38,082 bases of DNA from a virus, in IMG/VR virus record IMGVR_UViG_3300027693_000002. One strand, given 5' to 3'. This document shows positions 13,366-31,650 of the stretch, piece by piece (the first letter of the stretch is position 1; each line of letters begins with the position of its first letter). The notes under the pieces were generated by a model. That model was given only the letters and a program-made list of their open reading frames with translations. It made no database searches and had not been told where the DNA came from. A program made the position numbers and the translations under genes.

Positions 13366-13399
13366 TTGAGAGTTCGGGTGCTCGTGCGTAATAGAGGGC
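13366..13399 (+). promoter_or_regulatory. consensus leaderless promoter
   Basis: TTGAGA, a 14-nt spacer, GCGTAATA (13386-13393), gagggc, then ATG at 13400. Confidence 0.65.
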
Positions 13400-13954
13400 A
13401 TGAGCCAAACCGAACGAAATGGGGTCGTTCTTACGAGTGGACTTCTTGAGGGGTGGGAGGTTTCCAACCTCATCCCGAGTGAACAACTTCCAATGGAGGC
13501 GCTGAAGGTGTTCGAAGCCCCGATTTCCTCTGAGAACAAGATAGGGCTTCTCCTACGTGAAGAGATTCTTGGGGGAAGGGGGATGGTCTACGTGGCGGCT
13601 AGGGCTGCGCGCCGAGCCTGCACAGAGACAGGTTGGGACCATCCTGCTACCCTTCGAGCTCTCGACCTATGCGACCGTTACGCTGAGGGGGAAGAGATCT
13701 CAGCTAAAGCGCTAGGGGCAGCTGCTTTGGCTGTTTCTGAGGCTCCTTCAATGGCTGATGATGCCCCTTCAATGGATGCTTGGGAGGCTGCTCATGGGGC
13801 TGCTCGAGTTGCTTGGGCTGTTGCCGTTGATACTAGTGCCCGGACTAGGGCACTAACAGTTATTCGAACGGCTGTTAGTGCTGTCCCTAGTGAGAAGGAA
13901 GAGAGAAAAGCCCAACTCGCCGATTGTCGGGAGTGGCTTACGAGACGGGCCTAA
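13400..13954 (+). CDS. family A small protein (184 aa), paralogous to 17189..17803
   Basis: Promoter motif. The paralogue shares ...REEILGGRGMVYVAARAARRACTETGWDHPATLRALDLCDRY... Confidence 0.7.
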   Translation: MSQTERNGVVLTSGLLEGWEVSNLIPSEQLPMEALKVFEAPISSENKIGLLLREEILGGRGMVYVAARAARRACTETGWDHPATLRALDLCDRYAEGEEISAKALGAAALAVSEAPSMADDAPSMDAWEAAHGAARVAWAVAVDTSARTRALTVIRTAVSAVPSEKEERKAQLADCREWLTRRA

Positions 13955-13963
13955 GGAATTTGG

Positions 13964-13999
13964 TTGAGTTCTCTAGGCGCCCATGCGTAATAGGGTGGC
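13964..13999 (+). promoter_or_regulatory. consensus leaderless promoter
   Basis: TTGAGT (13964-13969), 15-nt spacer, GCGTAATA (13985-13992), then ATG at 14000. Confidence 0.65.
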
Positions 14000-14356
14000 A
14001 TGAGCAAAGTCGAACGAGAAGCTGTCATCCTGAACACGGTTCCTGGTTCGAAGTGGTATCAGTGCGTGAATAGCAAGTGGGTAGTGGGCTTGGTCGAGAG
14101 GGTAACCAAGACTACGATCTACCTCGAAGGGGGGACTCGCATCTCGAAGAGGAACTGTCGTGACCAAGATGGTTGGGCTTGGTATCCACCCACTCAGAAC
14201 ATCGTCAAGCAGTTCGAGGACTTTGAGGTCGCCAGGGTTGCTTACGAGGCGGCCGTAGAGAAGCTTCGAGAGGCAGCTCAGCGTGCTACGCCTGCTCAAC
14301 TTCTCAAGCTAGCCACTCAGCTAGAGAGCCTCATTGACCTGTCGGAGATTCACTGA
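14000..14356 (+). CDS. family B small protein (118 aa), with paralogues at 15380 and 16333
   Basis: Shared ...NTVPGSKWYQC...W...VTKTT...GG..ISK..CRD..G..W.PPTQ...; promoter motif upstream. Confidence 0.75.
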   Translation: MSKVEREAVILNTVPGSKWYQCVNSKWVVGLVERVTKTTIYLEGGTRISKRNCRDQDGWAWYPPTQNIVKQFEDFEVARVAYEAAVEKLREAAQRATPAQLLKLATQLESLIDLSEIH

Positions 14357-14401
14357 CCGCTCGTACTAGGAGGCCCGAGAAATTGACCTCGGGTATGGGA
14401 C

Positions 14402-15196
14402 ATGAAAAAGCCAATTGAATTGATCGTTCGGGGTTCTGTTGAGATTTCATCCTTCCAATTCAGCCTTGAGGCCACAGAAAATGTGGTGTGGCTGTCACGT
14501 ACGATGCGTGGCGTAGTCTCCGGGCTACTAGGCGTGTCGACGGGCGACATTGACGTCGTTGTCGTTGACGATTTCTTTTCTGGTCGAGGCCGATGGGGCC
14601 AGGTTTTGGAGATCTCAAACAAGACTGGTAAGTTCGACGGGACTCGGCGGATTCGGATGCTATTTCGCCTGCTCCCAGAAGAGCAAGCTCGCGATTTGAG
14701 GCCAATTAGCCTTGAGGTATCGGCTGATGAGACAGTTCCCTGTACGGTCATGGTGAGTGACCGGTTCGCCGGCAAGGAATTGCTATGGTCGCAGTCTTTT
14801 GTTCGCTACTCACATCGATTGTCTGACCCGGTACGGGCCGCAGATATCCTGACATGGCACTGGACGCGCTACTACCGTTTCCTACCGTGGTGTGATGTCG
14901 AGGATTTGGCACGCGACTTCGGGACTGCGGCGATTGGACTCACTCTGAGTGAGGCGAATCGCCTTGCTTCAAGGCAGCTCTACCAGAGGGCTAGAGAACA
15001 GGGTTGGAGGAAGTTGACTCTACGAGAGCAATCCCGGTGGCAGCTCCGTGGTCAGTGGCATCGCGACGAGGATTGCGTCACAGCTCGCGCCAAGCTTGGT
15101 GCACCCAACGGGGCGTCCGAAGCCTCGAATAGGGCCTCGCGTGCCAATGGTAAGCTTGACGACTACGAGTACTTGGCCGAGCAAATGGAGATCTAG
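14402..15196 (+). CDS. hypothetical protein (264 aa)
   Basis: Long ORF. The upstream signal is non-consensus (TTGACC ... TATGGGAC). Confidence 0.55.
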   Translation: MKKPIELIVRGSVEISSFQFSLEATENVVWLSRTMRGVVSGLLGVSTGDIDVVVVDDFFSGRGRWGQVLEISNKTGKFDGTRRIRMLFRLLPEEQARDLRPISLEVSADETVPCTVMVSDRFAGKELLWSQSFVRYSHRLSDPVRAADILTWHWTRYYRFLPWCDVEDLARDFGTAAIGLTLSEANRLASRQLYQRAREQGWRKLTLREQSRWQLRGQWHRDEDCVTARAKLGAPNGASEASNRASRANGKLDDYEYLAEQMEI

Positions 15197-15343
15197 AAGT
15201 TGACTCCAAACCCAGCTTAAGTTTCATAGAATGGGGAGCCAAGCACTGGGTTCCGGATGGGGTACTTGATGTTGGCCGACTTCCCAGTACCCCAGCCAAA
15301 GCTAGTTTCTTGGGGGTACCACAGGCGAACGCTATAGATTTTG

Positions 15344-15379
15344 GTTATGGGTTCGCAGGGGGCAAGCGTAATAGAGAAC
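15344..15379 (+). promoter_or_regulatory. consensus leaderless promoter (weak -35, GTTATG)
   Basis: GCGTAATA at 15366-15373, gagaac, then ATG at 15380. Confidence 0.55.
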
Positions 15380-15751
15380 ATGAACGCAGTTGATCGCGAA
15401 GAGGCCATTCGAAATACGGTACCTGGTTCAAAGTGGTATCAGTGCATCCATGGTAAGTGGCATGCGGTTGAGGTCAAGAAGGTAACCAAGACTACGGTTG
15501 TGCTTCTGGGGGGCACTTGCATCTCGAAGGCAACCTGTCGTGATCATGCTGGGCGGATCTGGTTTCCACCCACTCAGGACCTAGTTCTGGAGGTCATGGC
15601 GAAGAAGGACGCGATGACCTCTTACCTGGCAGCTCTAGAGAAGCTTCGAGCTATTGCTCAGTGGACTACAGCTGACCAGCTCCGGCAACTAGTCACCCAG
15701 ATGGAGAGCCTCATTGACCTCGTCACCGTCAATAGGGGCATAGGCCGGTGA
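15380..15751 (+). CDS. family B small protein (123 aa). The start is placed at the internal ATG defined by the promoter geometry and the paralogue N-termini.
   Basis: MNAVDREEAIRNTVPGSKWYQC... aligns with the family B N-termini. The track ORF begins 39 nt upstream, inside the promoter. Confidence 0.7.
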   Translation: MNAVDREEAIRNTVPGSKWYQCIHGKWHAVEVKKVTKTTVVLLGGTCISKATCRDHAGRIWFPPTQDLVLEVMAKKDAMTSYLAALEKLRAIAQWTTADQLRQLVTQMESLIDLVTVNRGIGR

Positions 15752-16201
15752 AGGTGGTAGGGGACTTTTGAGCTCCCTGCGTTTGAGTTCTGGGCCGGGG
15801 GCGTAGGTGATCATTCCGCGATACTGGGTAATGACAACGACGTCTTCGAGCTGGAATCCGGCGGACTTGACGTTACGTTGGATTCCGCCGTTGAGGACTC
15901 CGGTGAACCAGTTTGGTTTCTGCTTGAACTGGTCAGCGATCATCCTAGCGGAGAGACCATTTGGGGGGCCGGTCTTGATGAACTGGAGGACCTTCTTGGG
16001 GTTCGGCTTCAAGGCGGAGAGGAGTTTCATCCACGCCGTATCCCGGTCGAGGCGTGCCACTACCGGGATACGTGCTACGGGCTTTGGTTCATCCGCGACT
16101 GCCTGAAGGGTTGGGTTGAAGCCGTTCTCCTGAAGGAAGACGAGGGCCTTGATGAGGGCTTGATCGTCCTCGGTCTCGAATTGTACGAGAAATCTCGTCA
16201 T
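15689..16201 (-). CDS. hypothetical protein (170 aa) on the minus strand between plus-strand genes
   Basis: ATG start with AAGG about 9 nt upstream; natural-looking composition. It overlaps the 3' end of the 15380 gene by 63 nt. A competing plus-strand ORF 15878..16309 has a TTG start. Confidence 0.45.
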   Translation of the reverse strand: MTRFLVQFETEDDQALIKALVFLQENGFNPTLQAVADEPKPVARIPVVARLDRDTAWMKLLSALKPNPKKVLQFIKTGPPNGLSARMIADQFKQKPNWFTGVLNGGIQRNVKSAGFQLEDVVVITQYRGMITYAPGPELKRRELKSPLPPSPAYAPIDGDEVNEALHLGD

Positions 16202-16297
16202 AGGGGGCGCCTTAGTGGTACTGTAGTCAAGGCGTCATGCAAGAGGTTTTTGAGTAGGGGGACTTTTGAGTCAGAGGTTGAGTCTGCCTCAAAAGTC

Positions 16298-16332
16298 TCT
16301 CAGGACTAGGGCACAGGTGGTGTGTAGTAGGT
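16298..16332 (+). promoter_or_regulatory. degenerate promoter variant (…GTGTAGTAggtATG)
   Basis: A GTAGTA box ends 3 nt before the ATG at 16333. The -35 is unclear. Confidence 0.3.
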
Positions 16333-16701
16333 ATGAGCAACGCTATTCTTGAGGAAGCCGTTCGAAATACGGTCGCTGGGTCGAAGTGGTACCACCAAGT
16401 GGGTCGTAGTTGGCGTGAGGTCACTGTTGAGCGGGTAACCAAGACAATGGTCATTCTTACCAGTGGGGTACGAATCCCGAAGAAAACTCGTTGGGCTGAC
16501 GGGCACATATGGTTCCCACCCACCCCTGAGATGGTGGCGCTCTATGAGGCCCAGGATGCTCAAGAGATGGCTCATATCTTATACGTAGTAGCCTTAGAGA
16601 GGCTCCAGGCGTTGGCTCGGAAGTTTACGACCAACCAACTACGTCAGTTGGCCACTCAGATGGAGAGAGCCATCAAAGAGGTGGGAGACTCGCAGGGGTA
16701 A
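16333..16701 (+). CDS. family B small protein (122 aa)
   Basis: Paralogue of 14000 and 15380. Confidence 0.7.
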   Translation: MSNAILEEAVRNTVAGSKWYHQVGRSWREVTVERVTKTMVILTSGVRIPKKTRWADGHIWFPPTPEMVALYEAQDAQEMAHILYVVALERLQALARKFTTNQLRQLATQMERAIKEVGDSQG

Positions 16702-16856
16702 TCGAACCACTTCGGCCTGCTGTAAAAAGGTTGACTACCGGGGTGGGGGTGGAGTACTTTCCCGTTTGGCCTGAGCGTGGTTCTCCAATCATCTTCCACG
16801 TACGGGCTAGGCCGGGCCAGTTCTCCTTGTGTGCGGAGGATTGGCTCGGTCTTCTT

Positions 16857-17147
16857 TTATGGGGACCTCAAAGAGCCGGGTGGCTCGGGCAAATACATCC
16901 AATGGGTCACTAGCTCGGACTTGGAAAAGCGTACCCAATAGCCAGCATCCGATTCCACTAACCAATGAGACGTGCGATCGTACTTTGCAACGAGGAGTGC
17001 GTCCCAGCTATGCACTTCGCCGCTCGGGTATCGATCTACACGATGGTAGACGAGTAGTGGTTCATCGACTGGGGGATGGCATTCAGTGACCGGTACCCAG
17101 CCTTTCCTTTCGGGTTCAGGCTTCTCTTTCATGGGGCAAAAGTACAC
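16857..17147 (-). CDS. hypothetical protein (96 aa), minus strand
   Basis: ATG-start ORF with reasonable composition, sitting between plus-strand genes. Confidence 0.35.
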   Translation of the reverse strand: MYFCPMKEKPEPERKGWVPVTECHPPVDEPLLVYHRVDRYPSGEVHSWDALLVAKYDRTSHWLVESDAGYWVRFSKSELVTHWMYLPEPPGSLRSP

Positions 17148-17150
17148 CAG

Positions 17151-17188
17151 TTGACTTTTGGAGGTGATCCACGGATAATGAGGGTGGT
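17151..17188 (+). promoter_or_regulatory. promoter variant (TTGACT-N16-GGATAATG-N8-ATG)
   Basis: TTGACT at 17151-17156 and GGATAATG at 17173-17180. Confidence 0.45.
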
Positions 17189-17803
17189 ATGATCACCATT
17201 ACGAAAGAACTCCTTGAGAGTTGGGAGCCTTCCGACCTTATCCCAGACGAACTACTCCCGATGGGAGTGATGGAGTTGTTTGAAGCATCGATTCCGTCTA
17301 ATGCTAAAGTAGGGGTACTCCTACATGAAGAGATTCTTGGGCGGAGGGGAATGGTCTATGTAGTGGCTCGGGTTGCACGCCGAGGCTGTACGAAGACAGG
17401 TTGGTTCCATCCTGATACCCTTCGAGCTTTAGATCTGTGTGACCGATTTGTTAACGGGGAAGCGGTCTCAAAGGAAGAACTAGAAAGGGCTGCTAAGGCT
17501 GCTTGGGAGGTTCTGTCTGAGGATGCTCCTTCAATGCCTGCTTGGAGGACTGCTCATAGAGCTGCTCGGGTTGCTCAGGCTGCTGCTTGGGCTGCTTCTG
17601 TTATGACTACTTTGGCTAATGCTCAGGCTGCTGCTAGGGCTGCTACGACTTGGGCTGCTCGAGCAGCCACTTCTAGTGCTAAAAGTGCTAAAGAGAGAAG
17701 AGCTCAACTTACTGATTGCCAAGATTGGCTTCTAAGGAATTCCCCACAAGAAAGGGCTCCCGTACTTACTCGGTACCAGCGGATAATGAGGTCGTTGTGC
17801 TAA
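17189..17803 (+). CDS. family A small protein (204 aa) with an Ala-rich repetitive C-terminus
   Basis: Paralogue of 13400..13954. Confidence 0.7.
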   Translation: MITITKELLESWEPSDLIPDELLPMGVMELFEASIPSNAKVGVLLHEEILGRRGMVYVVARVARRGCTKTGWFHPDTLRALDLCDRFVNGEAVSKEELERAAKAAWEVLSEDAPSMPAWRTAHRAARVAQAAAWAASVMTTLANAQAAARAATTWAARAATSSAKSAKERRAQLTDCQDWLLRNSPQERAPVLTRYQRIMRSLC

Positions 17804-18102
17804 CCCTGGGGGAGGGTTAATGCGCCGTAGGGGGGAATGCCTTGGTCCAGTTCCGGATTTTGAGTTTGACGCTGACCTGTAAGATAGGTTGCCGGTAAGG
17901 TTACGAGCAGTGCATCAAGACTCGAGGGTGGTGGGGAGCCAGGGTCACTCTCGTTTATGACCAGAACAATGGGGGTGGCCTGGATAGTTAGTAGATTGCT
18001 TACAGGTAGGTAAGCTCTTGGCTCATTCCTATAGTTACCAGCGTATTGAGTAACTACATGTAAGCTAGTCCCTTGTTCGAGCTTATAAGCTCGAGCCTCT
18101 TG

Positions 18103-18178
18103 ATTGCCTACACGTAGTTTTAGAGCATGTTCGTAGCAATAGTAATGAGCCAATCATAAAACTACGTGTAGTTACATA
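18103..18178. repeat. R1 inverted-repeat element, copy 2
   Basis: GCCTACACGTAGT...CGTAGCAATAGTAATGAG...CTACGTGTAGT. Confidence 0.6.
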
Positions 18179-18404
18179 CTTTCTGGTTGAGAGTCCGCTT
18201 TTTGGTACATACTACGACTCATGTCATCAGTTGAGGGGAAAGTCGCACACTTTTTGAGAGCCGTAAGGCTCGGTTTGGTGAAAGACGTTCCACCGGATGC
18301 TGTCACATGTGAGTTCCATACAAAACTCACATGTGACAGCATCCGGGCTGCCACGTGTGGGGATAGGATTCTCGTAGAAAGGCAGGAACGCCGTCGAAGT
18401 TTGG

Positions 18405-18439
18405 TTGAGTTTGGCAAGACTGGCACGTAATACTAGGGC
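18405..18439 (+). promoter_or_regulatory. consensus leaderless promoter (TTGAGT-N14-CACGTAATA-N7-ATG)
   Basis: TTGAGT at 18405-18410, then ATG at 18440. Confidence 0.6.
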
Positions 18440-18670
18440 ATGACCCTCAAACATACGGCTGACATGCTTGCCTCGCTCAACGAACTGACTGCCAAGGTGA
18501 CGGCATTCAAGTCGTTTGCTGAGCTAGCAGCTCGCATGCTTGATGGGTACGTTCCCACTCTACGTGGAGACGATGCGGACTCAAAGGCCCTCGCCCTAGG
18601 GATCACCAGGGCGGGATTCAAGGCTTGGAACCCGGCAACGGGACGGAATTGGGTCGACGAAACCGGTTGA
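18440..18670 (+). CDS. family C small protein (76 aa)
   Basis: Its C-terminal 45 aa are nearly identical to 18936..19169. Its stop codon lies inside the next -35 box (ACCGGTTGAGG). Confidence 0.7.
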   Translation: MTLKHTADMLASLNELTAKVTAFKSFAELAARMLDGYVPTLRGDDADSKALALGITRAGFKAWNPATGRNWVDETG

Positions 18671-18700
18671 GGTTCTCGAAGCTCGCGCGTAATAAGAGGC
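18667..18700 (+). promoter_or_regulatory. consensus leaderless promoter
   Basis: TTGAGG (18667-18672), 14-nt spacer, GCGTAATA (18687-18694), then ATG at 18701. Confidence 0.65.
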
Positions 18701-18919
18701 ATGCCCAAGACGAAAAAGCTAACCCCCACCCAGGTTAAAACTCTCCAAGAGATCATCAAGATTACGGGTGTGGGGTTTCCTTGGAGTTGTGTCCCGGAAT
18801 ACAAGCCGGCTCTTAAGCTGCTCGAGCTCGGGTACGTGTCGAAGACTAAAAGTTTAGGTGGGTCTCTAATCATCTTGGTTCCGACCGAGCTAGGTCGATC
18901 AGTGGCTTCGAGCTTGTAA
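18701..18919 (+). CDS. family D small protein (72 aa)
   Basis: Paralogue of 21236..21475, with the shared block WSC.PEYKPALKLLEL.YVSK...LVPTELGRSVAS. Confidence 0.7.
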   Translation: MPKTKKLTPTQVKTLQEIIKITGVGFPWSCVPEYKPALKLLELGYVSKTKSLGGSLIILVPTELGRSVASSL

Positions 18920-18935
18920 GAGGGGGATTTTCTAC

Positions 18936-19169
18936 ATGAAAAGCGAAGTTCAAGTTGCTGCCCAGATCGACAAACTCAACCAGCTAACGGCTTCGGCCAC
19001 GGCCTTTAGGTCGTTCGCGGAGTTAGCTGCCAAGATGCTCGATGGGTACGTTCCCACCCTACGAGGGGACGATGCTGACTCGAAGGCGTTGGCTCTCGAG
19101 ATCACCAAGGCAGGATTCAAGGCTTGGAACCCGGCGACTGGGCGGAACTGGGTCGACGAAACCGGTTGA
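18936..19169 (+). CDS. family C small protein (77 aa), SD-led
   Basis: AGAGGGGGA lies about 10 nt upstream. Paralogue of 18440. Confidence 0.7.
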   Translation: MKSEVQVAAQIDKLNQLTASATAFRSFAELAAKMLDGYVPTLRGDDADSKALALEITKAGFKAWNPATGRNWVDETG

Positions 19170-19200
19170 GGTTCTTGGGGGTCGTGCGTAATAGGATGGC
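19166..19200 (+). promoter_or_regulatory. consensus leaderless promoter
   Basis: TTGAGG (19166-19171), 14-nt spacer, GCGTAATA (19186-19193), then ATG at 19201. The stop codon of the previous gene is inside the -35. Confidence 0.65.
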
Positions 19201-19641
19201 ATGGCACGATACCTCATCACCGTAGCGGCAGTTCTCCTAGTCGACCTGAGTGGATGTGCCCCTTTAGAGGACCACTTCCAGGTGACAGGGGACGCTACGG
19301 AGGAAGAGATTGCGATCATGCAGGAGGCCTCGGACGCTTGGTGTGAAGCGACGAGTGGTGCTTGGTGCGCCCAGATGAACCGGGAAGAGGGCGCCAACAA
19401 GATTCGCATCGTGCCGGTAGGGGTATTGCCGGGGAAGGATCACGCCATCTACACCCACCACAAGGGGTTGTATGAGTGGCACGAGATCCGGATTACGGAC
19501 CGTCGGGATAGAGACACGTGGGAGTTTGACTTGTATTACACAGTACTCCACGAGATGGGGCACGCCTACAACCTGCACCATCAGGATGGTACGGTGATGC
19601 AAGTTGGTTATGATCGTACACTGTTCGAAGAGAAGCCATGA
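19201..19641 (+). CDS. putative lipoprotein zinc metallopeptidase (metzincin-like HEMGHAYNLHH)
   Basis: Signal peptide plus lipobox (LVDLSGC). An HExxH motif with a third His is spaced as in metzincins (HExxHxxxxxH, with Asn in place of the usual Gly). Confidence 0.6.
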   Translation: MARYLITVAAVLLVDLSGCAPLEDHFQVTGDATEEEIAIMQEASDAWCEATSGAWCAQMNREEGANKIRIVPVGVLPGKDHAIYTHHKGLYEWHEIRITDRRDRDTWEFDLYYTVLHEMGHAYNLHHQDGTVMQVGYDRTLFEEKP

Positions 19642-19815
19642 AAGAAAAACTGATTCGTTGGTTGGTCGGGACCCCCACTCATGAGACGGGGAGTAAGCGT
19701 ATTAGGACCGTATGCGACGCCATCAAGTGGCGCTTAGGGGGACTCCCCTGGTTGGACGCGTCGGTACGGTACGATGGTTCAGTATCCCTCTACTATTACA
19801 GGTAATCTTTCCCAA

Positions 19816-19850
19816 TTGAGTTCAGGATAGGCTCAAGCGTAATAGACGTG
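19816..19850 (+). promoter_or_regulatory. consensus promoter followed by a 22-nt SD-containing leader
   Basis: TTGAGT at 19816-19821 and GCGTAATA at 19837-19844. There is no ATG at the canonical spot. AGGAGA sits 8 nt before the ATG at 19865. Confidence 0.55.
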
Positions 19851-19864
19851 CAGGAGAAGAAACC

Positions 19865-24245: not shown

Positions 24246-24258
24246 GCGCGCTTTCTGG

Positions 24259-24293: not shown

Positions 24294-24677
24294 ATGTCGA
24301 ACAACGTTCATCTCCTGGATTTTATTCACACTGGGACTCAACAGCAGTTGGTTGCATTCGCCTGCAAGGTAGCTAAGCGAGCCAGCCCCGGGCCTGCTGG
24401 ACTTCATGCGATCGAGATTGCGGAGCGATGGCTCCGGGGTGAAGCTATTTCGAAGGAAGAACTCATCGTCGCGGGAGATGCGGCCTCTGATGCAGACGAT
24501 GACCTGGCAGGCTACGCTACCATCGCGGCGGCCTTTCCAGGAGATGCCGTCGAAGCGGCTTACATAACGGCGATCCACGCTTTGGATGATCTTGACGACC
24601 ACGCTCAGGAGGCTGAGGTGGCTCAACAAGTCCAGGACTTTCTTGATATCTTGGGTGGAAACCCAGCAAAGGAGTGA
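24288..24677 (+). CDS. hypothetical acidic protein (129 aa from 24288, or 127 aa from 24294)
   Basis: First gene of an operon whose downstream genes are SD-led. Confidence 0.6.
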   Translation: MGMSNNVHLLDFIHTGTQQQLVAFACKVAKRASPGPAGLHAIEIAERWLRGEAISKEELIVAGDAASDADDDLAGYATIAAAFPGDAVEAAYITAIHALDDLDDHAQEAEVAQQVQDFLDILGGNPAKE

Positions 24678-25177: not shown

Positions 25178-25198
25178 AACAGTGGGTGAGGGCGGCCC

Positions 25199-25606
25199 AT
25201 GAAACTCGAGGAAGTGACCGCTGGAAGGCGATTGAAACTGAGCAATCTCGCTCAGTTAGAAGGGGTATACCAAATGCTAGGTAGAAGGGGCATTCCATCT
25301 ATTTCGTTGAAACAATTGGTAGATGATGCGGTTTTTGCACTCTCACGGTTCCAACACGAGAAAGGGACTGTCAGCGAGCTACGTTCCCTGGCAAGTCCGA
25401 ATCACATCATGGACTTGATCTTCTTTGCCAACGCGAAGTCGGTCACTTTTCGTGATCGTGGCGTGGAGTGCGCGGTCGAAGCGGACAAGCGAGACTGTCA
25501 GCTCGCTGCTCTCGCGTTGGTCAAGATAGCCCAGCGAGCTGAACACATTGTGGAGGTCCTTCGAGGAAGGAGAATACCAGATGTGGTACGACATTGTGAA
25601 CGGTAA
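25199..25606 (+). CDS. hypothetical protein (135 aa)
   Basis: ORF in the operon. Confidence 0.5.
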   Translation: MKLEEVTAGRRLKLSNLAQLEGVYQMLGRRGIPSISLKQLVDDAVFALSRFQHEKGTVSELRSLASPNHIMDLIFFANAKSVTFRDRGVECAVEADKRDCQLAALALVKIAQRAEHIVEVLRGRRIPDVVRHCER

Positions 25607-25946
25607 CGGGGACTTTCTCGGACGTGCTAATGGGGATACGCCGGAGGGGGCCGTCGAAGGAGTCCAAAAGTACTGGCCATGTCCCGAAGACCGTTGGCTT
25701 CGAGACCCAAGTAACAAGGAGTCCCAGGACCTTCTCATTCCTGGGGCCAAGAAGGAACAGGAACTGGTCCGAAAGGATGTTTGGGCCTTCTGCAAACCCC
25801 ACATTAAGGGAATGCTGGGTGTGCAGACCAAACCGTTGAATAAGCCCCCGCAATTCTTAGATGGGGAGTACTACTACGAGGTTCTTGGTAAGACCTACTG
25901 CGTCAAGATCGTGCTTGATGCAGTCTTCATCACCCGCATCAAATAG
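25548..25946 (+). CDS. family F protein (132 aa), with its C-terminal 57 aa shared with 25999..26541
   Basis: AAGGAG SD. The C-terminal block KDVWAFC.PHIKGM....KPLNKPPQFLDGEY.YEVLGKTYCVKIVLDAVFITR.K is duplicated. Confidence 0.6.
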   Translation: MWRSFEEGEYQMWYDIVNGNGDFLGRANGDTPEGAVEGVQKYWPCPEDRWLRDPSNKESQDLLIPGAKKEQELVRKDVWAFCKPHIKGMLGVQTKPLNKPPQFLDGEYYYEVLGKTYCVKIVLDAVFITRIK

Positions 25947-25963
25947 AACTGACTCAAAGAGAG

Positions 25964-25998
25964 TTGAGTTCTTGGACCCTCGCGCGTAATAGAGGGGT
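25964..25998 (+). promoter_or_regulatory. consensus leaderless promoter
   Basis: TTGAGT (25964-25969), 14-nt spacer, GCGTAATA (25984-25991), then ATG at 25999. Confidence 0.65.
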
Positions 25999-26541
25999 AT
26001 GCAAGACCAAGACGATATCAAGGAAGAGCTCAAGCACATTGTCTGGGGTCTCGCCATCGAAGGGGCCACGGCTCATCTCCACGAGACCAGCGTTACCTTC
26101 AAGGCCGAGGGGGTGGATTGCTCCATCTATACGGAGGTGCTTGCGATCCCGAACCAAGTGACCAAGGACGCCGAGGGGAATGAATACGTTCCCTTGGAGG
26201 TCAGAGTCACCCTAGTTGAGCCAATTTTTGCTTTAGACACGCCCAAGGAAATCATCGCCCGACTCCAATTCGGGCTCAAGGTTGCCCAGCTCGCGCAGAG
26301 CATTGTTGATCACTTCGCAGGCCGAGACCTTCGGTGCCTCCTCTGTAGCGCAGGTGAGAGGGCCGAGAAGGATGTTTGGGCCTTCTGCACACCCCACATT
26401 AAGGGAATGCGGGTAGACAAGACCAAGCCGTTGAATAAGCCCCCGCAATTCTTAGATGGGGAGTACCACTACGAGGTTCTTGGTAAGACCTACTGCGTCA
26501 AGATCGTGCTTGATGCAGTCTTCATCACGCGCACCAAATAG
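25999..26541 (+). CDS. family F protein (180 aa)
   Basis: Its C-terminal domain is duplicated from the previous gene, and the promoter is duplicated with it (a 40-nt identical upstream block). Confidence 0.65.
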   Translation: MQDQDDIKEELKHIVWGLAIEGATAHLHETSVTFKAEGVDCSIYTEVLAIPNQVTKDAEGNEYVPLEVRVTLVEPIFALDTPKEIIARLQFGLKVAQLAQSIVDHFAGRDLRCLLCSAGERAEKDVWAFCTPHIKGMRVDKTKPLNKPPQFLDGEYHYEVLGKTYCVKIVLDAVFITRTK

Positions 26542-26557
26542 AACGGACCCAAAAAAG

Positions 26558-26591
26558 TTGAGTTCTTGGACCCTCGCGCGTAATAGAGGGC
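26558..26591 (+). promoter_or_regulatory. consensus leaderless promoter
   Basis: Identical to the 25964 promoter over about 35 nt (TTGAGTTCTTGGACCCTCGCGCGTAATAGAGGGC). Confidence 0.65.
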
Positions 26592-26795
26592 ATGAAGACG
26601 GAACTCATGGTTGGCTCAGAACTCGTAAAACGCCGCCGTAGCCTCTCGTACCCTTCTGGAACTGTCAAGGTTCCTGGAACCTTGGTCACGATTGTCGGAT
26701 CGACTCCCAAGTTTTGGGAGTTGAGCGATGACACTCTCGTGTCAAAAACCACTCTCGAAGCAAAAGGTTCGCTATTCACTTACAGTGTGAGCTGA
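26592..26795 (+). CDS. hypothetical protein (67 aa)
   Basis: ORF at the promoter. Confidence 0.5.
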   Translation: MKTELMVGSELVKRRRSLSYPSGTVKVPGTLVTIVGSTPKFWELSDDTLVSKTTLEAKGSLFTYSVS

Positions 26796-26800
26796 TAGCC

Positions 26801-27106
26801 ATGAACCAACGAGATATGCCACCAGGGACCAAGGTGGCTTACACAGGTAAGTTCCTACGTTCGGCGGGCCTCTACACGGGTTCAGCGGGCCTTGACCAGT
26901 TCGTAGTCCAAGAGTGCCACTGCCCTCACTGCAAGGGCAAGACTCGGGTAGCCGTCAACCGGCTCGCTTCTTGGACCGATCCCCATGAGCCTGGGTACGA
27001 CCCCGAGTACGCTCGTGATCTCAAGGCTGAGGTGGGGAACACCTGGCTGCACATAAGTCCGACGGCCCTCTACGTGGTAGGGGAGTTGGACCCAAGGAAC
27101 GTCTGA
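26801..27106 (+). CDS. hypothetical protein with a CHCPHC motif (101 aa)
   Basis: ORF. Confidence 0.45.
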   Translation: MNQRDMPPGTKVAYTGKFLRSAGLYTGSAGLDQFVVQECHCPHCKGKTRVAVNRLASWTDPHEPGYDPEYARDLKAEVGNTWLHISPTALYVVGELDPRNV

Positions 27107-27149
27107 CTTCGTTGGACTGTCTCGCCCCGAGACGGGGTATTAGGTCCCC

Positions 27150-27422
27150 ATGGACCTAAAAAGGTACGAGAGCAAGGTGACGGCCCTTCTAAACCTACTT
27201 AGGGAGCACGAAGTCCTGTCCTCTCAGCTACCAATTGGGTTCTCAGAAGCTTGCTTCGTTGCTGAGGAGTTCGGCCTGGCCTACGCCAGAAAAGACCTCA
27301 CCTTAACGTCAAGGGACAAGGCTATCTGGGTATGGAGGATCACCGACGCTGGTCGCCGTTGGCTCAAAGAGCGAGAGCATCCTGAAGTCCCTCCGACAGA
27401 AGTTCTCCCCACGAAGGATTGA
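27150..27422 (+). CDS. family E small protein (90 aa)
   Basis: Paralogue of 28412..28666 (MDL.KYESK..ALL..LR.H..LS..LP.G..EAC..AEE.GLAYARKD..L.S..KAIW.WRIT..G..WLK.RE.PEVPPT). A GTATTAGG box precedes the ATG. Confidence 0.6.
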   Translation: MDLKRYESKVTALLNLLREHEVLSSQLPIGFSEACFVAEEFGLAYARKDLTLTSRDKAIWVWRITDAGRRWLKEREHPEVPPTEVLPTKD

Positions 27423-27452
27423 GTTTCTGAGCCCTTATGCGTAATACTGGGC
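27419..27452 (+). promoter_or_regulatory. consensus leaderless promoter
   Basis: TTGAGT (27419-27424) overlaps the stop of the previous gene; GCGTAATA (27439-27446); then ATG at 27453. Confidence 0.6.
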
Positions 27453-27671
27453 ATGCCGAATGAAGACCATCAGGTGGTGCTTGGAATCCAAGTAAAGAAG
27501 AACGCAAAGGGGATGCGAGTGGGAGCCTCGAAAGAGGTTTTCCACATGACGATTGGGCTGAGCCAGAAGGCCATGATCCTTCCGGGTCGTCACTTGGTGG
27601 TGCTCGGGACCCGACGTTACCGGGTAGAGGTCGACCAGAACAAGAACCTCAAGATTACTCGTACGGTTTGA
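27453..27671 (+). CDS. hypothetical basic protein (72 aa)
   Basis: A frameshifted remnant of its 5' end, with its own promoter, recurs at 31651. Confidence 0.6.
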   Translation: MPNEDHQVVLGIQVKKNAKGMRVGASKEVFHMTIGLSQKAMILPGRHLVVLGTRRYRVEVDQNKNLKITRTV

Positions 27672-27724
27672 CCTAAGTTCAAGAGATAGGGGGAGTGATC
27701 CACAGACTTGGGTCACTCCCTCGT

Positions 27725-27900
27725 TATCCATGTAAGCAAATACGTGGTTCGTTACTATTGATACGAACAGTGCACTCGCTTACATGTAGTTTTTGCTCAC
27801 GTTCGTTACTATTGATACGAAAGCTAAGGTTGCCTACACGTAAGTATCAAGCACGTTCGAATCTATAGTAATGAACACGATTTTGGTCTACGTGTAGTAT
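27725..27900. repeat. R1 inverted-repeat element, copy 3, plus two extra direct copies of the 19-21-mer GTTCGTTACTATTGATACGAA
   Basis: 19-21-mers at 27748-27768 and 27802-27822 in one orientation, and CGAATCTATAGTAATGAAC at 27858-27875 inverted. Termini are GCCTACACGTAAGT / CTACGTGTAGT. CATGTAAGC...GCTTACATG flanks the first 19-21-mer. Confidence 0.65.
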
Positions 27901-27945
27901 GAGGAGACCACTTGACCGCCCTGAAGGTCAGCCAACAAGTATCTC

Positions 27946-28325
27946 CTCTTGACCACTTGACCGCCCTGAGGTATCCTCCGGGGGTCGTAAGTTCATCTTG
28001 CCCAGCACCCGAACAGGCCCAGAGCCTTCCTTCTGGGGTTAGCGAGGCAGAGTGAACCTCCTACGACACTCATCCTAGATGAAGATACCATGCCTCAGCT
28101 AGGCCGAACCGGCCCTGCTAGGTCAAAGTAAGCTGACGATCTCTGTTCCCTGGAATGAGCCAATCCTTCCTCTTAGTAGGTAAACACAGGCTACGAGGGA
28201 CGCCCGAGTCCGAGTGCTGAAACGACCTAAACGGAACCGAAGTAGGACAAGTAGCTCAAATCTCAGCCTGAATCCCTTTGCTTTCGGAGCAATTGATTGG
28301 AAACGGGCTAAAAGTGCATTTACTT
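27946..28325. repeat. R2 large intergenic repeat, copy B (~380 nt)
   Basis: See copy A. It is preceded by two tandem copies of ACCACTTGACCGCCCTGA(A)GG (27905-27965). Confidence 0.75.
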
Positions 28326-28411
28326 GATTAACTACATCTCCTAGGACTAGCTGGACACCCTCACCCACCCCAGTTAGAATACATCCCAGAACGGGGTGAG
28401 CCGTATTCACG

Positions 28412-28666
28412 ATGGACCTAACCAAGTACGAAAGTAAGATAGCGGCCCTCCTAATCGTACTCAGAGGTCACGACATCCTGTCCCCCAACCTACCTAGCGG
28501 GTCCGCAGAGGCTTGTTCCATCGCCGAAGAGCTCGGCCTGGCCTACGCCAGAAAAGACGTCCACCTGTCATCCAGCATGAAAGCTATCTGGATTTGGAGG
28601 ATCACCGCCTCCGGTTGCCAATGGCTCAAAGATCGGGAGCGTCCTGAAGTACCCCCGACAGATTGA
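28412..28666 (+). CDS. family E small protein (84 aa)
   Basis: Paralogue of 27150. Confidence 0.6.
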   Translation: MDLTKYESKIAALLIVLRGHDILSPNLPSGSAEACSIAEELGLAYARKDVHLSSSMKAIWIWRITASGCQWLKDRERPEVPPTD

Positions 28667-28702
28667 GTTTGGAAACGGGCTAAAGGTGTATTTGGGGGTA
28701 CG

Positions 28703-28900
28703 ATGTCACCGATATCTCGTCAGGAGAAGAGCCTATTGGAGAGGGAGAGTCCTGGGGATCCTGCTGGGGATCTTCGGGAGAGGGACCGGCTCAGGAAGCA
28801 GCATGAGCGGGCACAGGATCCGGACAACATGAGGCTAATCCAAGCGTTACGTGAGTTTCTAGGGCTACAACCGCTACCTGGGATCCCAGAAAGAAAGTGA
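28703..28900 (+). CDS. hypothetical charged protein (65 aa)
   Basis: It is preceded by TTGAGT plus the GGAAACGGGCTAAAGGTGTATTTGGGGG element, but has no GCGTAATA box. Confidence 0.4.
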   Translation: MSPISRQEKSLLERESPGDPAGDLRERDRLRKQHERAQDPDNMRLIQALREFLGLQPLPGIPERK

Positions 28901-28909
28901 AGAACCTGG

Positions 28910-28943
28910 TTGAGGGTCCACCTCCTCGCGCGTAATAATAGGC
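28910..28943 (+). promoter_or_regulatory. consensus promoter with no ORF at the canonical position (ACG replaces ATG); it feeds a long hairpin
   Basis: TTGAGG (28910-28915), 14-nt spacer, GCGTAATA (28930-28937), ataggc, then ACG. Confidence 0.55.
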
Positions 28944-28944
28944 A

Positions 28945-29039
28945 CGAAGGTCAGAAGCTAAACCCCTCCTTGACTAGCTGTAGTGGGGTCCTTGACTAGC
29001 TGTAGTGGTTAGTGGGAGGGGTTTAGTTCCTGACCTTCG
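28945..29039 (+). ncRNA. 95-nt hairpin leader / ncRNA candidate. The ~25-bp stem has a 4-nt internal mismatch. The 45-nt loop holds two tandem copies of CCTTGACTAGCTGTAGTGG.
   Basis: The 5' arm CGAAGGTCAGAAGCTAAACCCCTCC (28945-28969) pairs with GGAGGGGTTTAGTTCCTGACCTTCG (29015-29039). The predicted transcription start of the upstream promoter is at about 28944. Confidence 0.45.
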
Positions 29040-29050
29040 TAGTCGGAACC

Positions 29051-29407
29051 GTGGGAGACATCGAAGTGAAGTTCATCGAGAAAACGACGTTACGGAATTG
29101 CGGCCCCGTTGATCAAGAGGAGGATTCGCCGGTGCACGGATCCCTTCTCGTGGGAGAAGAGTGTGTCGGAACCTACGAAGACCGACGGTCTTCGTGCGGG
29201 TATGACTTCGTTGAGGTTTTCCCCGCGTACCATCGTGGGGCGAAAGCGTGGCTGCTCACGGCTACGTGGTCCCCTGCTCGGGGGTACTCGGCAAGCGGGG
29301 TCCAGGATGCGGTGGTCCCCTTCGAGGAGGGGGTTCGAATTCTGCTCACTCATGGGGCATACGCGCATCTTTGGAAGTCAACTGGATTGGAGTACTTGGT
29401 GAAGTGA
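29051..29407 (+). CDS. hypothetical protein (118 aa), GTG start, 11 nt after the hairpin
   Basis: ORF. Its TGA stop overlaps the GTG start of the next gene (GTGA). Confidence 0.4.
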   Translation: MGDIEVKFIEKTTLRNCGPVDQEEDSPVHGSLLVGEECVGTYEDRRSSCGYDFVEVFPAYHRGAKAWLLTATWSPARGYSASGVQDAVVPFEEGVRILLTHGAYAHLWKSTGLEYLVK

Positions 29408-29802
29408 CCAAGCTCACCAACTCGCAAAAGTCCTTACTGAGATCTATCCAGGCTCTCTCATCTGAGGGTAACAGGTCAGTAGAGGTCTTACCTTCCGAGA
29501 TTACGACAGCCAAGGCCCTCGAGCGAAAGGGGCTCGTCACCCTTCACTCCACCCAGGTAGGGGGCAGGGAGTCCTACGAGGCCACCCTGGTAGTGATCGA
29601 CTCCCGGCGTGAGGTCATTGGGGTCATCGAGGAGTTCATGGTTCAGCTCCAATCCGCCTGCCGAGCCCTCGAAACGGAATCCGACTCAAGTACTCTCTTC
29701 GAGCACATGAGTACCGTTATGAGCCACGGGAGAATCGAATCGCTCCGCATAGCTCTTCGCAATCGGGCCCTCGAGCTCTACGAGGAAAAGAAGGGCTCGT
29801 AG
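29404..29802 (+). CDS. winged-helix-like small protein candidate (133 aa from a GTG start)
   Basis: The frame matches the track ORF 29248..29802, but its N-terminal 52 aa look non-coding (Gly-rich). A GTG at 29404 is coupled to the upstream stop. The stretch KSLLRSIQALSSEGNRSVEVLPSEITTAKALERKGLVTL resembles MarR/wHTH helices. Confidence 0.4.
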   Translation: MTKLTNSQKSLLRSIQALSSEGNRSVEVLPSEITTAKALERKGLVTLHSTQVGGRESYEATLVVIDSRREVIGVIEEFMVQLQSACRALETESDSSTLFEHMSTVMSHGRIESLRIALRNRALELYEEKKGS

Positions 29803-29814
29803 ACCGCTCCCCGG

Positions 29815-29849
29815 TTGAGTTTCACCCGCCCTCAGGCGTAATAAGGTTC
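29815..29849 (+). promoter_or_regulatory. consensus leaderless promoter
   Basis: TTGAGT (29815-29820), 15-nt spacer, GCGTAATA (29836-29843), then ATG at 29850. Confidence 0.6.
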
Positions 29850-30284
29850 ATGTCACTTCAACACTTGTTAGCCGAGGCCCTCTGCGCAACCTTCACCAGC
29901 ATGTGTGGGAAGTGGCAAGCCAAGAAGCCTTCCCCCAAGGCCTTCGTGGTGAGCTTCAAGACCTCCATTAACTCCGACAAGGAAGAGGGTCACCGTTACG
30001 TCGACCTAGCCCTCTACGCTTCCCACAACTACGTCAACGTCTACTCACGAGAGCGCTGGAATACAATCCCACTCGAGGATATGGAGTGGGACGAGGAAGC
30101 CCAAGAGATGATGCCCTCGAAGGGCAAGGGCTATACCAAGGGTGAGACCCCTTGGAAGCTCCTAGTCTCCCATGACACGGGCTGGTCGGAGGCGGTGGAG
30201 GACTTCCTCCAGGCGAACGCCTCCAAGGTGAACGCCTTCGAGGGCAACTTTTACAAGCTCGTGGACGCTACCGAGTTCGAGTGA
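29850..30284 (+). CDS. hypothetical protein (144 aa)
   Basis: ORF at the promoter. Confidence 0.6.
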   Translation: MSLQHLLAEALCATFTSMCGKWQAKKPSPKAFVVSFKTSINSDKEEGHRYVDLALYASHNYVNVYSRERWNTIPLEDMEWDEEAQEMMPSKGKGYTKGETPWKLLVSHDTGWSEAVEDFLQANASKVNAFEGNFYKLVDATEFE

Positions 30285-30285
30285 A

Positions 30286-30380
30286 GGTTGCAAAACCAGT
30301 ACCAGCCAACCCCCTCCGGAGCCACTCCACAGGGGGTTGAAGTGCCCTCCAACCTCCAACCCTGATACTTTGATTGCAGA
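30286..30380 (+). repeat. conserved ~95-nt 3'-UTR element, copy 2
   Basis: See 3328-3420. It starts 2 nt after the stop of 29850..30284, just as copy 1 starts after the stop of 2978..3310. Confidence 0.6.
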
Positions 30381-30673
30381 GAACCTACATGCCAACGCCT
30401 CGCAAGAAGCCCACCAAGAAAGTCCACGAGCTCAACCGGAACCTCTTCATCGAATGGTCCAAGGGGACACTCCTGAAGAGGGATCGGAAGGGACGCTGCC
30501 TGGTATTGGACGGCTCGGACTTCGCTCGTAAGTGTGAGGCAGCCGAGGCCGATCTGGAACTGGGGGCTACGCTCTACCTCACTGACGACGCTGGCAAGCG
30601 GATCACTAAGATCACTTCCGATGGGAAGGGTTACGAGGAAGTTCTGGTGACCCGCTACCGGAAGCTATCCTAG
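30374..30673 (+). CDS. hypothetical basic protein (99 aa)
   Basis: ORF that begins inside the tail of the 95-nt element. Confidence 0.45.
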   Translation: MQRTYMPTPRKKPTKKVHELNRNLFIEWSKGTLLKRDRKGRCLVLDGSDFARKCEAAEADLELGATLYLTDDAGKRITKITSDGKGYEEVLVTRYRKLS

Positions 30674-30840
30674 AGAGACATCCTACGCTGGCACGACGAG
30701 TATCTTACGGCCTCAGGCTCATGGCTCCCTGTCTATAGCAAGGCCTCAGGCTCATGGCATACAGTGGGAAGGCATCCCTACCCCGGAACCGAGTATCGAA
30801 GGCCCCTACCCAAGCGTAAGAACTCCTCTTAAAGCCCACC

Positions 30841-31155
30841 ATGCACCTGGTAGTGAACCTCGATGACTACGCCTGGCTCATCCTACCAAGGCGTAGTGTG
30901 GCCCATGCGTTCGCCAGAGGTGCCTCAAGAGGCCTCTGTGGAATGACAAAGTCCTACCCCCTAGAACACTTGACTGCATCTACACCTACGACACGTAGGT
31001 GCGAAGCTTGCCTTATGTCACTTGTATCAGGGGTAAGCTCTGCTGAATACAAGTTCTTCCTAGGATTTGTCCCAGAGAAGGCCAGGCTGCGACGCCGGTC
31101 CGCCTGGAAGGCTTTCCTACGTGAACACCGTTCTGTGAAACTTACTCAAAGTTAG
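30841..31155 (+). CDS. hypothetical protein (104 aa), weak
   Basis: ORF only. Confidence 0.25.
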   Translation: MHLVVNLDDYAWLILPRRSVAHAFARGASRGLCGMTKSYPLEHLTASTPTTRRCEACLMSLVSGVSSAEYKFFLGFVPEKARLRRRSAWKAFLREHRSVKLTQS

Positions 31156-31616
31156 CTTTGATGTTCACTTCCTGCTTCAACGAATCATAACTCGTAGTCC
31201 GAAGTTTCCCTCGTTCCGCCGTTAGAGGGTTCTCCACAGGCTTTCAGAGATCATAGATCTCCACGTTTCCCCTAAACTATGGGTACGTTAAACCTACGTA
31301 AAGTTGGTTCTTTTCTTGATTCCTCAAGTCTTTTACCGCAACAAGGACAACGACATTGCGCCTTCGGCGCAAGTCTTTCGTGTTGCGAACCACTTAGACT
31401 TGCTTTTCAAGGATCATCTCAGGTCTTCCCTTGGTTTTCGGGTTTAGTTGCCTGAGTCCACGAACCTTGATTCAGTCCTGAGAAAATGTCAAGCTAATCT
31501 GGTTTGATCAACTTTGATCAACTTTTCTTTCAGCTGCTCCAACCCCCAATACGGTCCGCCCTCTTGGAGGGACCGCTCCATTGGAGCAGGAAAGTGACCC
31601 GGCACTAAGAAAGACG

Positions 31617-31650
31617 TTGAGTCCATCCAAGCTCATGCGTAATACTGGCC
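31617..31650 (+). promoter_or_regulatory. consensus promoter driving a decayed gene copy
   Basis: TTGAGT (31617-31622), 14-nt spacer, GCGTAATA (31637-31644), then ATG at 31651. Confidence 0.55.

Follow-up and report, generated by a model that had tools for sequence, protein, structure and literature searches.

The stretch of viral DNA analysed here, IMG/VR record IMGVR_UViG_3300027693_000002 (38,082 nt; 'the window'), comes from a large phage that has not been cultivated and contains in its interval 13366–31651 ('the range') a recurrent two-part motif, termed class 1, that stands directly in front of a series of small genes. As judged from its sequence, class 1 is very likely a promoter whose transcription start (+1) lies at or next to the ATG of the downstream gene.

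In the proposed mechanism, the promoter pairs a −35 box, GTTGAGW, with an extended −10 box, CTCGC-GCGTAATA, the two lying 14–15 nt apart. RNA polymerase would start 6–7 nt past the octamer, on a purine that follows a pyrimidine; in about four-fifths of the copies this purine would be the A of the ATG, and the transcript, opening with AUG, would be translated as a leaderless mRNA with no Shine–Dalgarno (SD) pairing. Class 1 would be read by a two-domain, sigma-28-like sigma factor of the phage (37177–37824, minus strand) together with the host core polymerase, and the sigma-bound polymerase would switch on a regulon of many small proteins. On balance we slightly favour this explanation as a whole: a promoter class for a non-housekeeping sigma factor, probably the phage's own, with +1 on the ATG.

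Class-1 copies and their distance from the start codon

The octamer GCGTAATA is present in the window in 17 exact copies, all on the plus strand and spanning 13386–31644, compared with a mean of 0.37 and a maximum of 3 in dinucleotide-preserving shuffles. The full string TTGAGT-N13–16-GCGTAAT has eight exact matches where zero are expected. Octamers with one mismatch stand under the same upstream box at 18425 (ACGTAATA) and, as GCGTAGTA, at 21920 within the range and at 3462 outside it. The tally is 19 copies in the range and 22 in the whole window, the latter including a minus-strand insertion variant (34018–33980) and a TATAAT hybrid (2943–2980). An earlier sequence-only reading had put the number at about 22 and had expected a frequency above chance and restriction to one strand; the count and the excess over shuffles bear this out, and the minus strand holds only the insertion variant. 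The sites are as follows, given as coordinates, strand and composition, with the open reading frame (ORF) that follows and its length in amino acids (aa).

13366–13402, plus: class-1 copy, TTGAGA-N14-GCGTAATA-gagggc-ATG; ORF 13400–13954, 184 aa
13964–14002, plus: class-1 copy, TTGAGT-N15-GCGTAATA-gggtggc-ATG; ORF 14000–14356, 118 aa
15345–15382, plus: class-1 copy with degenerate −35 box TTATGG, N15-GCGTAATA-gagaac-ATG; ORF 15380–15751, paralogue of the 14000 gene
18405–18442, plus: class-1 copy, TTGAGT-N14-ACGTAATA-ctagggc-ATG; ORF 18440–18670, 76 aa
18667–18703, plus: class-1 copy, TTGAGG-N14-GCGTAATA-agaggc-ATG; ORF 18701–18919; upstream TGA stop 18668–18670 within the −35 box
19166–19203, plus: class-1 copy, TTGAGG-N14-GCGTAATA-ggatggc-ATG; ORF 19201–19641, 146 aa, putative lipoprotein metallopeptidase; upstream stop within the −35 box
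19816–19867, plus: class-1 copy, not leaderless, TTGAGT-N15-GCGTAATA, 20-nt leader with AGGAG, ATG at 19865; ORF 19865–20563, 232 aa
20852–20888, plus: class-1 copy, TTGAGC-N14-GCGTAATA-gagagc-ATG; ORF 20886–21062, 58 aa
21202–21238, plus: class-1 copy, TTGATC-N14-GCGTAATA-gagtgc-ATG; ORF 21236–21475, 79 aa
21899–21936, plus: class-1 copy, TTGAGT-N15-GCGTAGTA-gagatc-ATG; ORF 21934–22569, 211 aa
22576–22613, plus: class-1 copy, TTGAGT-N15-GCGTAATA-gggagc-ATG; ORF 22611–22817, 68 aa
23948–23984, plus: class-1 copy, TTGAGC-N14-GCGTAATA-ctgggc-ATG; ORF 23982–24245, 87 aa; upstream stop 23949–23951 within the −35 box
24259–24296, plus: class-1 copy with degenerate −35 box TTAATT, N15-GCGTAATA-atgggc-ATG; ORF 24294–24677
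25964–26001, plus: class-1 copy, TTGAGT-N14-GCGTAATA-gaggggt-ATG; ORF 25999–26541, 180 aa
26558–26594, plus: class-1 copy, TTGAGT-N14-GCGTAATA-gagggc-ATG; ORF 26592–26795, 67 aa
27419–27455, plus: class-1 copy, TTGAGT-N14-GCGTAATA-ctgggc-ATG; ORF 27453–27671, 72 aa
28910–29040, plus: class-1 copy without ATG, TTGAGG-N14-GCGTAATA-ataggc; predicted +1 A28944, the start of a 97-nt hairpin; GTG ORF at 29051
29815–29852, plus: class-1 copy, TTGAGT-N15-GCGTAATA-aggttc-ATG; ORF 29850–30284, 144 aa
31617–31775, plus: class-1 copy, TTGAGT-N14-GCGTAATA-ctggcc; three-codon ATG ORF, then structured RNA with tRNA-like T-arm
3442–3478, plus: class-1 copy outside the range, TTGAGT-N14-GCGTAGTA-cttagc-ATG; ORF 3476–3835, 119 aa
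33980–34018, minus: class-1 variant with a one-base insertion, TTGAGA-N15-GCGTAAATA-gtctgc-ATG; ORF 33982–33713, 89 aa
2943–2980, plus: hybrid promoter, TTGAGG-N18-TATAAT-agaac-ATG, with a canonical −10 hexamer in place of the class-1 TAATAG; ORF 2978–3310

A second hybrid promoter with a canonical −10 box lies at 17151. The class-1 consensus is (G)GTTGAG(T/A)-N14/15-(gCTCG.)GCGTAATA-(g.GgGC)-ATG, the octamer being commonly preceded by CTCGC. Of the 19 copies in the range, 12 have a spacer of 14 nt between TTGAGN and the octamer, and the other 7 one of 15 nt; scored over 18 window copies the two lengths stand at 13:5, and over 60 unique sites in relatives at 43:16. Degenerate −35 boxes (TTATGG, TTAATT and TTGATC) are found in three of the 19. 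Such a pair of conserved blocks, with a spacer that may vary by 1 nt, is the form of a two-part promoter of the sigma-70 family, and all copies are co-oriented with the ORF downstream. Many of the small genes are paralogous, but gene duplication does not account for the number of copies, as flanking sequence is common to no more than 3 of 190 pairs of sites.

The partly palindromic TTGAG…CTC raised the alternative of a hairpin or terminator, which was rejected: 35-nt segments fold with −4.4 kcal/mol, compared with −4.8 kcal/mol for shuffles, the GAG/CTC complementarity rarely exceeds 3–4 bp, and there is no inverted repeat.

Packing around the sites is tight. The claim that stop codons of upstream genes fall inside the next −35 box holds at 18668–18670, 19167–19169 and 23949–23951, but not at 29802. 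Genes without the motif had been said to use AGGAG leaders or 4-nt overlaps, and examples of both exist (22860 and 23568; 19638 and 21059), but some such genes have a second promoter-like class instead, described below.

Among the copies in the range, 12 have a 6-nt gap from octamer to ATG and 4 a 7-nt gap, one nucleotide more in each case than the 5–6 nt first reported, and at 16 of the 19 the ATG opens an ORF of 58–211 aa. The same distance dominates in 866 kb of DNA from the wider phage family, a set fetched mostly through the motif itself, so that one site per locus is pre-selected. Of its 206 distinct octamers, 153 have an ATG at exactly 6 nt and 24 at 7 nt (177 in all), and every other distance from 0 to 20 nt accounts for at most five octamers; TATAAT and GGGTAT give flat ATG-distance profiles in the same DNA. 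In four loci fetched through the sigma gene, with no selection for the motif (L048, L053, L055 and L056), there are 5–9 copies per 20 kb, and the ATG follows the octamer by 6–7 nt in about 22 of 28.

The 6 nt between octamer and ATG are variable and contain no SD sequence, in keeping with the absence of SD signals that had been noted before. Where the gap is 6 nt, a pyrimidine always comes right before the ATG (C in 48 and T in 11 of 59 sites, a purine in none). Bacterial RNA polymerase prefers a pyrimidine at −1 and a purine at +1. Motif and geometry are observed features, from which the start site and leaderless translation are predicted.

Copies that lack an ATG at the usual place are informative. 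In the copy at 28930, A28944 occupies the position normally taken by the A of the ATG and is the first base of a 97-nt near-perfect hairpin (28944–29040; −61.4 kcal/mol, z = −6.2) that lies upstream of the GTG ORF at 29051. In the copy at 31637, the sequence ATG-ACC-GAA-TGA is followed by a structured RNA with a T-arm-like hairpin; this site, beginning at 31617, probably drives a non-coding RNA. The ATG-less copies of relatives precede SD-like leaders or have a pyrimidine–purine step at the same position. Because ATG-less copies stand in front of SD leaders and structured RNAs, the motif appears to work independently of a start codon, which argues for a promoter and against a translation element. 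Together with the two-part form, the common orientation, the fixed distance and the pyrimidine before the ATG, these copies support the original proposal that transcription begins at or next to the start codon.

The two RNAs have further features of their own. In the upper part of the 28944–29040 hairpin, CCTTGACTAGCTGTAGTGG occurs twice in tandem, the copies pairing with each other. In the RNA at 31651–31775 (plus strand), the T-arm-like hairpin reads UAGGG-UUCGAUU-CCCUA; there is also a stem resembling an acceptor stem and a 7-nt loop, CUCAGAU. Neither ARAGORN at standard settings nor Rfam gave anything above threshold for this RNA and the non-coding stretch of the window, and relaxed ARAGORN settings returned only poor tRNA-like models for 31651–31775.

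Related phages and a second promoter-like class

Megablast of 20 kb of the window against 50,697 phage records found no near match. A pattern search with the motif retrieved 16 stretches from at least 7 contigs of 12–512 kb in IMG/VR, and more than 112 stretches in JGI and ENA metagenomes, of which 28 had at least two copies among the matches listed. Conservation across this family is directly visible: the motif stands at the same distance from the ATG in many metagenomic phage contigs of 95–512 kb. It is also kept in front of one gene family across distant lineages (window genes 14000, 15380 and 16333; L009:5319–5711; L056:8017). Across the family, 122 unique proteins start at class-1 sites; their median length is 90 aa. 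Known domains are nearly absent from them; one protein is an HD_4 hydrolase.

In a scan of the genomes of 185,579 species, no genome with multiple copies was found, so no host regulon with the class-1 motif was seen. There were 29 chance-like single hits, and the other matches were one internal duplicate (L035) and one real relative (L026). The latter (JBAYMG010000051.1, 5.3 kb) is binned in a Candidatus Omnitrophota genome. Besides a class-1 copy it encodes a 314-aa protein that has a homologue on the 512-kb phage contig (L016); either a phage fragment was binned wrongly, or the contig gives a weak hint of the host. A 571-kb contig labelled 'delta proteobacterium' (L039), with a look-alike copy beside a sigma-2 gene, was dropped because its sigma factor is unrelated to that of the phage family and its neighbouring proteins have no homologues there.

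Mobile elements are found in this family as well. A transposase of about 410 aa with SWIM and DDE_Tnp_1 domains, present on the minus strand at L008:977–2209 and L053:17701–18939, begins right after a class-1 or class-1-like motif, and the element seems to use the phage's own type of promoter. At the left end of the window, a TnpB/OrfB_IS605-like ORF (3–779, minus strand) has a weak Pfam hit.

A second promoter-like class has the form (c)GGTGTA-N9–12-ATG, with no conserved −35 box and usually a pyrimidine before the ATG. Its sites in the window are the following.

1062–1079, minus: GGTGTA-class site
32724–32741, plus: GGTGTA-class site
34087–34104, plus: GGTGTA-class site
2164–2184, plus: GGTGTA-class site

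Three exact GGTGTA-N9-ATG cases occur in the window, compared with 0.10 expected. In the 866 kb of family DNA, GGTGTA precedes an ATG by 9, 10, 11 and 12 nt in 29, 36, 14 and 20 cases, over a background of about 5; many such sites lie in L053, L055 and L056. In both classes GTA is placed some 9–10 nt before the ATG. Since there are two classes, both close to the ATG, leaderless or near-leaderless starts seem to be a property of the family and not of one motif.

The phage sigma factor and its proposed link to class 1

The candidate reader of class 1 is encoded near the right end of the window.

37177–37824, minus: two-domain sigma-70-family gene, 215 aa, sigma-2 and sigma-4 without sigma-3

That this gene encodes a sigma factor, as the sequence-only reading had suggested, is confirmed by NCBIfam, by a profile search of the PDB and by AlphaFold and Foldseek. 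Pfam gave only a weak region-4 hit. In NCBIfam, four homologues score 45–52 bits against the sigma-70 superfamily model TIGR02937 (cut-off 42.9) and the window protein 38.6; the best subfamily for region 2 is FliA/WhiG (TIGR02479, E = 4e-16), but with 59 bits against a cut-off of 189.6 and region 2 alone aligned, the protein falls outside that subfamily. A profile built from 14 family members matched FliA in the PDB with E = 4e-13, and also WhiG. The AlphaFold model (pLDDT 71) has a confident sigma-2 bundle (residues 36–109), a disordered linker (111–135) and sigma-4 (140–204), and in Foldseek its best matches (E ≤ 0.001) are sigma factors without exception. Sigma-2 and sigma-4 domains joined by a disordered linker describe a two-domain sigma factor without sigma-3, and a protein of this kind can read a −10 and a −35 box.

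A word-indexed search found 15 homologous proteins, and the family has six cluster representatives at E ≤ 1e-30 among 1.84 billion proteins; tblastn with a homologue against 50,697 deposited phage genomes gave no match. The homologues lie on contigs of 95, 98.5, 225, 443 and 512 kb, all of which also carry the class-1 motif. The sigma gene is not itself preceded by class 1, in the window or more widely across five lineages; what it has there is a conserved element of its own, GTATTCCTYCTSTC…GGGTA (in the window, upstream to 37930). In a close relative, L053, the second promoter class stands before the two genes that lie upstream of the sigma gene. Such a layout fits, without proving, a cascade in which the sigma factor comes first and then turns class 1 on.

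The make-up of the −10 box bears on which sigma factor is involved. Read as a TAATAN hexamer, it gives a spacer of 17–18 nt to TTGAGN and a discriminator of 5–6 nt, an alignment supported by the 2943 hybrid, which has TATAAT in the same register. The last base of the hexamer is G, C or A and never T, departing from the housekeeping TANNNT, and the preceding GCG is invariant. A scan with the sigma-70 consensus accepted one copy in the range (28910, in a shifted register) and showed no enrichment over shuffles (16 compared with 12.1 expected, and 9 compared with 8.3). Group-1 sigma factors depend on A at −11 and T at −7. The lack of T at −7 and the invariant GCG make a housekeeping sigma factor an unlikely reader, and the view that the −10 box is not of the housekeeping type stands. 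From this exclusion, and from the co-occurrence of sigma gene and motif, we regard the case for the phage sigma factor as the reader of class 1 as evenly balanced.

Several observations weigh against the proposal. The class-1 start site is a prediction from sequence. The co-occurrence of sigma gene and promoter lies within one related phage family and is confounded by shared ancestry, and TTGAG and GCGTAATA are invariant, leaving no co-variation with the sigma recognition helices to assess. On the 512-kb contig, copies of the motif are few in the approximately 40 kb surveyed near its two sigma genes. The window protein lacks some 45 N-terminal residues found in its relatives, a segment that is helix-turn-helix-like (RLRSQGxSLRQISKLTGLHRETI...).

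Other such points give substance to the main rival, in which the sigma factor acting at the leaderless promoter belongs to the host, as an unusual primary or an alternative one, and the phage sigma factor serves another gene class, such as the GGTGTA class or the late genes. In well-studied phages, many small genes with individual strong promoters are typical of the early class transcribed by host polymerase, and the class-1 regulon is built in this way. The TTGA-type −35 box and the 17–18-nt spacer that follows from the TAATAN hexamer would also suit a primary sigma factor, the hybrids at 2943 and 17151 have canonical −10 boxes at equivalent positions, and the motif is common to many phages from several metagenomes. 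Against this reading, no copy has T at −7, the GCG is invariant and the consensus scan does not score the sites; moreover, the 185,579-species scan returned no multi-copy genome, only chance-like single hits and one apparently mis-binned phage fragment. We consider a host sigma factor possible, though unlikely.

Recognition by a phage-encoded RNA polymerase, either single-subunit or multisubunit as in phiKZ and AR9, in place of a sigma holoenzyme is improbable. The relatives include huge phages (225–512 kb), and some phages of such size encode polymerases of their own (PMC7598289); in addition, the conserved block CTCGCGCGTAATA runs unbroken up to the start region. Yet a separate −35 block and a 14/15-nt spacer are the signature of sigma-2 and sigma-4, unlike a contiguous T7-type promoter. 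No polymerase gene is present in the window, where the largest ORF encodes a 654-aa structural-type protein, or among the Pfam-annotated genes of three sigma-anchored loci; phiKZ has no leaderless transcripts, and AR9 leaders are 26–491 nt long.

Least probable of all is that class 1 is no promoter but the site of a phage regulator, like the stoperators of L5 and Bxb1, or a translation-linked 'start-associated sequence': numerous copies in one orientation, in short intergenic gaps, some overlapping stop codons and lying close upstream of starts, would agree with it, but the two-part form, the fixed 6–7 nt to the ATG and the pyrimidine/purine context are not expected of a stoperator, the 6 nt before the ATG are variable and too near it for SD function, ATG-less copies still stand in front of structured RNAs, and inverted repeats or hairpins are absent (mean −4.4 compared with −4.8 kcal/mol, as above). 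An archaeal promoter was also rejected, there being no TATA box near −26 and the associated factor being a bacterial sigma.

Known systems, other window features and implications

Phage-encoded sigma factors with private promoters are known from SPO1 (gp28 and gp33/34) and T4 (gp55). As in these phages and in phiEco32 and 7-11, a phage protein of the sigma-70 family is found here together with a conserved, non-host-like promoter upstream of phage genes. The phiEco32 and T4 late promoters consist of a −10 box only, whereas class 1 is two-part, with a −35 box. Promoters of the phiEco32/7-11 sigma factors have the consensus TAATGTATA and 'appear in low copy numbers' (PMC4331800); class 1, unlike them, has about 20 copies in 18 kb and a predicted start on the ATG.

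In geometry, class 1 comes closest to the promoters of sigma-28, and the system may work like the sigma-28 type without being a member of it. The sigma-28 (FliA/WhiG) promoter has the form TAAA-N15-GCCGATAA. Judged by this generally quoted consensus, the two share a −10 element of 8 bp that begins with GC, boxes set about 15 nt apart and no dependence on T at −7, and region 2 of the phage sigma factor is nearest to FliA/WhiG. They differ in that the class-1 −35 box is GTTGAG and not TAAA and the −10 box GCGTAATA and not GCCGATAA, which places class 1 outside the sigma-28 promoters, and in that the phage protein scores far under the FliA/WhiG cut-off and lacks sigma-3.

Transcripts of the Thermus phage phiYS40 are said to be leaderless. 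In Deinococcus-Thermus and Actinobacteria, a −10 box adjoining the ORF gives rise to leaderless mRNAs, and genes with SD leaders coexist with them (PMC12340547, which cites the phiYS40 transcription study of Sevostyanova et al. 2007). There, as predicted here, a −10 box at a fixed short distance puts the start at or next to the AUG; those boxes, however, are of the housekeeping TANNNT type, whereas class 1 has GCGTAATA, no T at −7 and a strict −35 box. The likeness to phiKZ and AR9 lies in large phages with stereotyped, phage-specific promoters before many genes; these two have non-canonical polymerases of their own and long leaders (26–491 nt in AR9) or, in phiKZ, no leaderless transcript, whereas the promoter here is of the sigma type and its transcripts are predicted to be mostly leaderless.

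Three further promoter or site types can be set apart. Promoters of extracytoplasmic function (ECF, group 4) sigma factors have AAC in the −35 and CGT in the −10 element; CGT is present within GCGTAATA, but GTTGAG has no AAC. T7-type promoters are contiguous blocks of about 18–23 bp with no variable spacer, unlike class 1, and the window has no ORF longer than 654 aa and the loci examined no polymerase domain. The start-associated sequences and stoperators of Cluster K mycobacteriophages are single 13-bp blocks, SD-like or repressor-bound, with inverted repeats in the extended form. By that customary definition class 1 is not one of them, being two-part, with no SD-like core and no inverted repeat or excess folding. 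A literature search for the octamer found no relevant paper among the matches listed, and one on leaderless transcripts in 'huge phages' found nothing.

The small genes on the plus strand between 13400 and 30300 form paralogue families: 13400 and 17189; 14000, 15380 and 16333; 18440 and 18936; 18701 and 21236; 27150 and 28412; and, in their C-termini, 25548 and 25999. A lipoprotein signal (LSGC) and a weak metallopeptidase motif are present in the product of 19201–19641. Just one gene of the window (6562–8526, plus strand) is clearly of structural type; it encodes the 654-aa protein, which has an Ig-like head-decoration or tail-fibre domain (PHROG hits of about 1e-18) and resembles, at the level of domains, proteins of Gordonia, Rhodococcus, Curtobacterium, Ralstonia and cyanobacterial phages. 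A Thg1-like tRNA-His guanylyltransferase is encoded at 5203–5949 (minus strand; Pfam Thg1 and Thg1C, E = 1e-26); this gene for a tRNA-repair enzyme shares the window with the structured RNA at 31651–31775 and its T-arm-like hairpin. The closest phage homologues of the Thg1-like protein are about 34% identical, and an identical protein is present in JGI metagenomes 3300027956 and 3300027675; tblastn with this and the 654-aa protein against phage genomes gave distant or domain-level matches only. About 2 kb, at 30700–32700, has little convincing coding capacity; this stretch contains a strong hairpin (32024–32063), TCAAGGCGCCTACGGCGCGGTGA repeated at about 32283 and 32393, and a sub-threshold RAGATH-18 match (31169–31240, minus strand; 27.8 bits compared with a gathering score of 44.9, E = 0.017).

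Promoters specific to phages are familiar, and so are leaderless mRNAs. We have not found a description of the two combined as here, in an apparently non-housekeeping and sigma-specific promoter whose predicted +1 coincides with the ATG in some 80% of over 150 family copies. For phages without a cultured relative, such a promoter class supplies a precise regulatory grammar that is open to testing; it also yields a candidate orthogonal pair of sigma factor and promoter, leaderless translation being built in, and a sequence tag of about 30 nt that can retrieve members of the family from metagenomes. If the link between sigma factor and promoter is true, the family would provide a clean system for leaderless translation as a strategy and not an exception.

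More tentatively, these widespread phages of 95–512 kb may carry a self-contained module in which a private sigma-28-like sigma factor and a private promoter hard-wire the transcription start to the A of the ATG. A single DNA signal would then set both transcription and translation initiation for many small, probably host-directed proteins, and, with the GGTGTA class, nearly the whole early programme would be independent of SD pairing. Such an arrangement might keep phage expression going when initiation in the host is altered or shut off.

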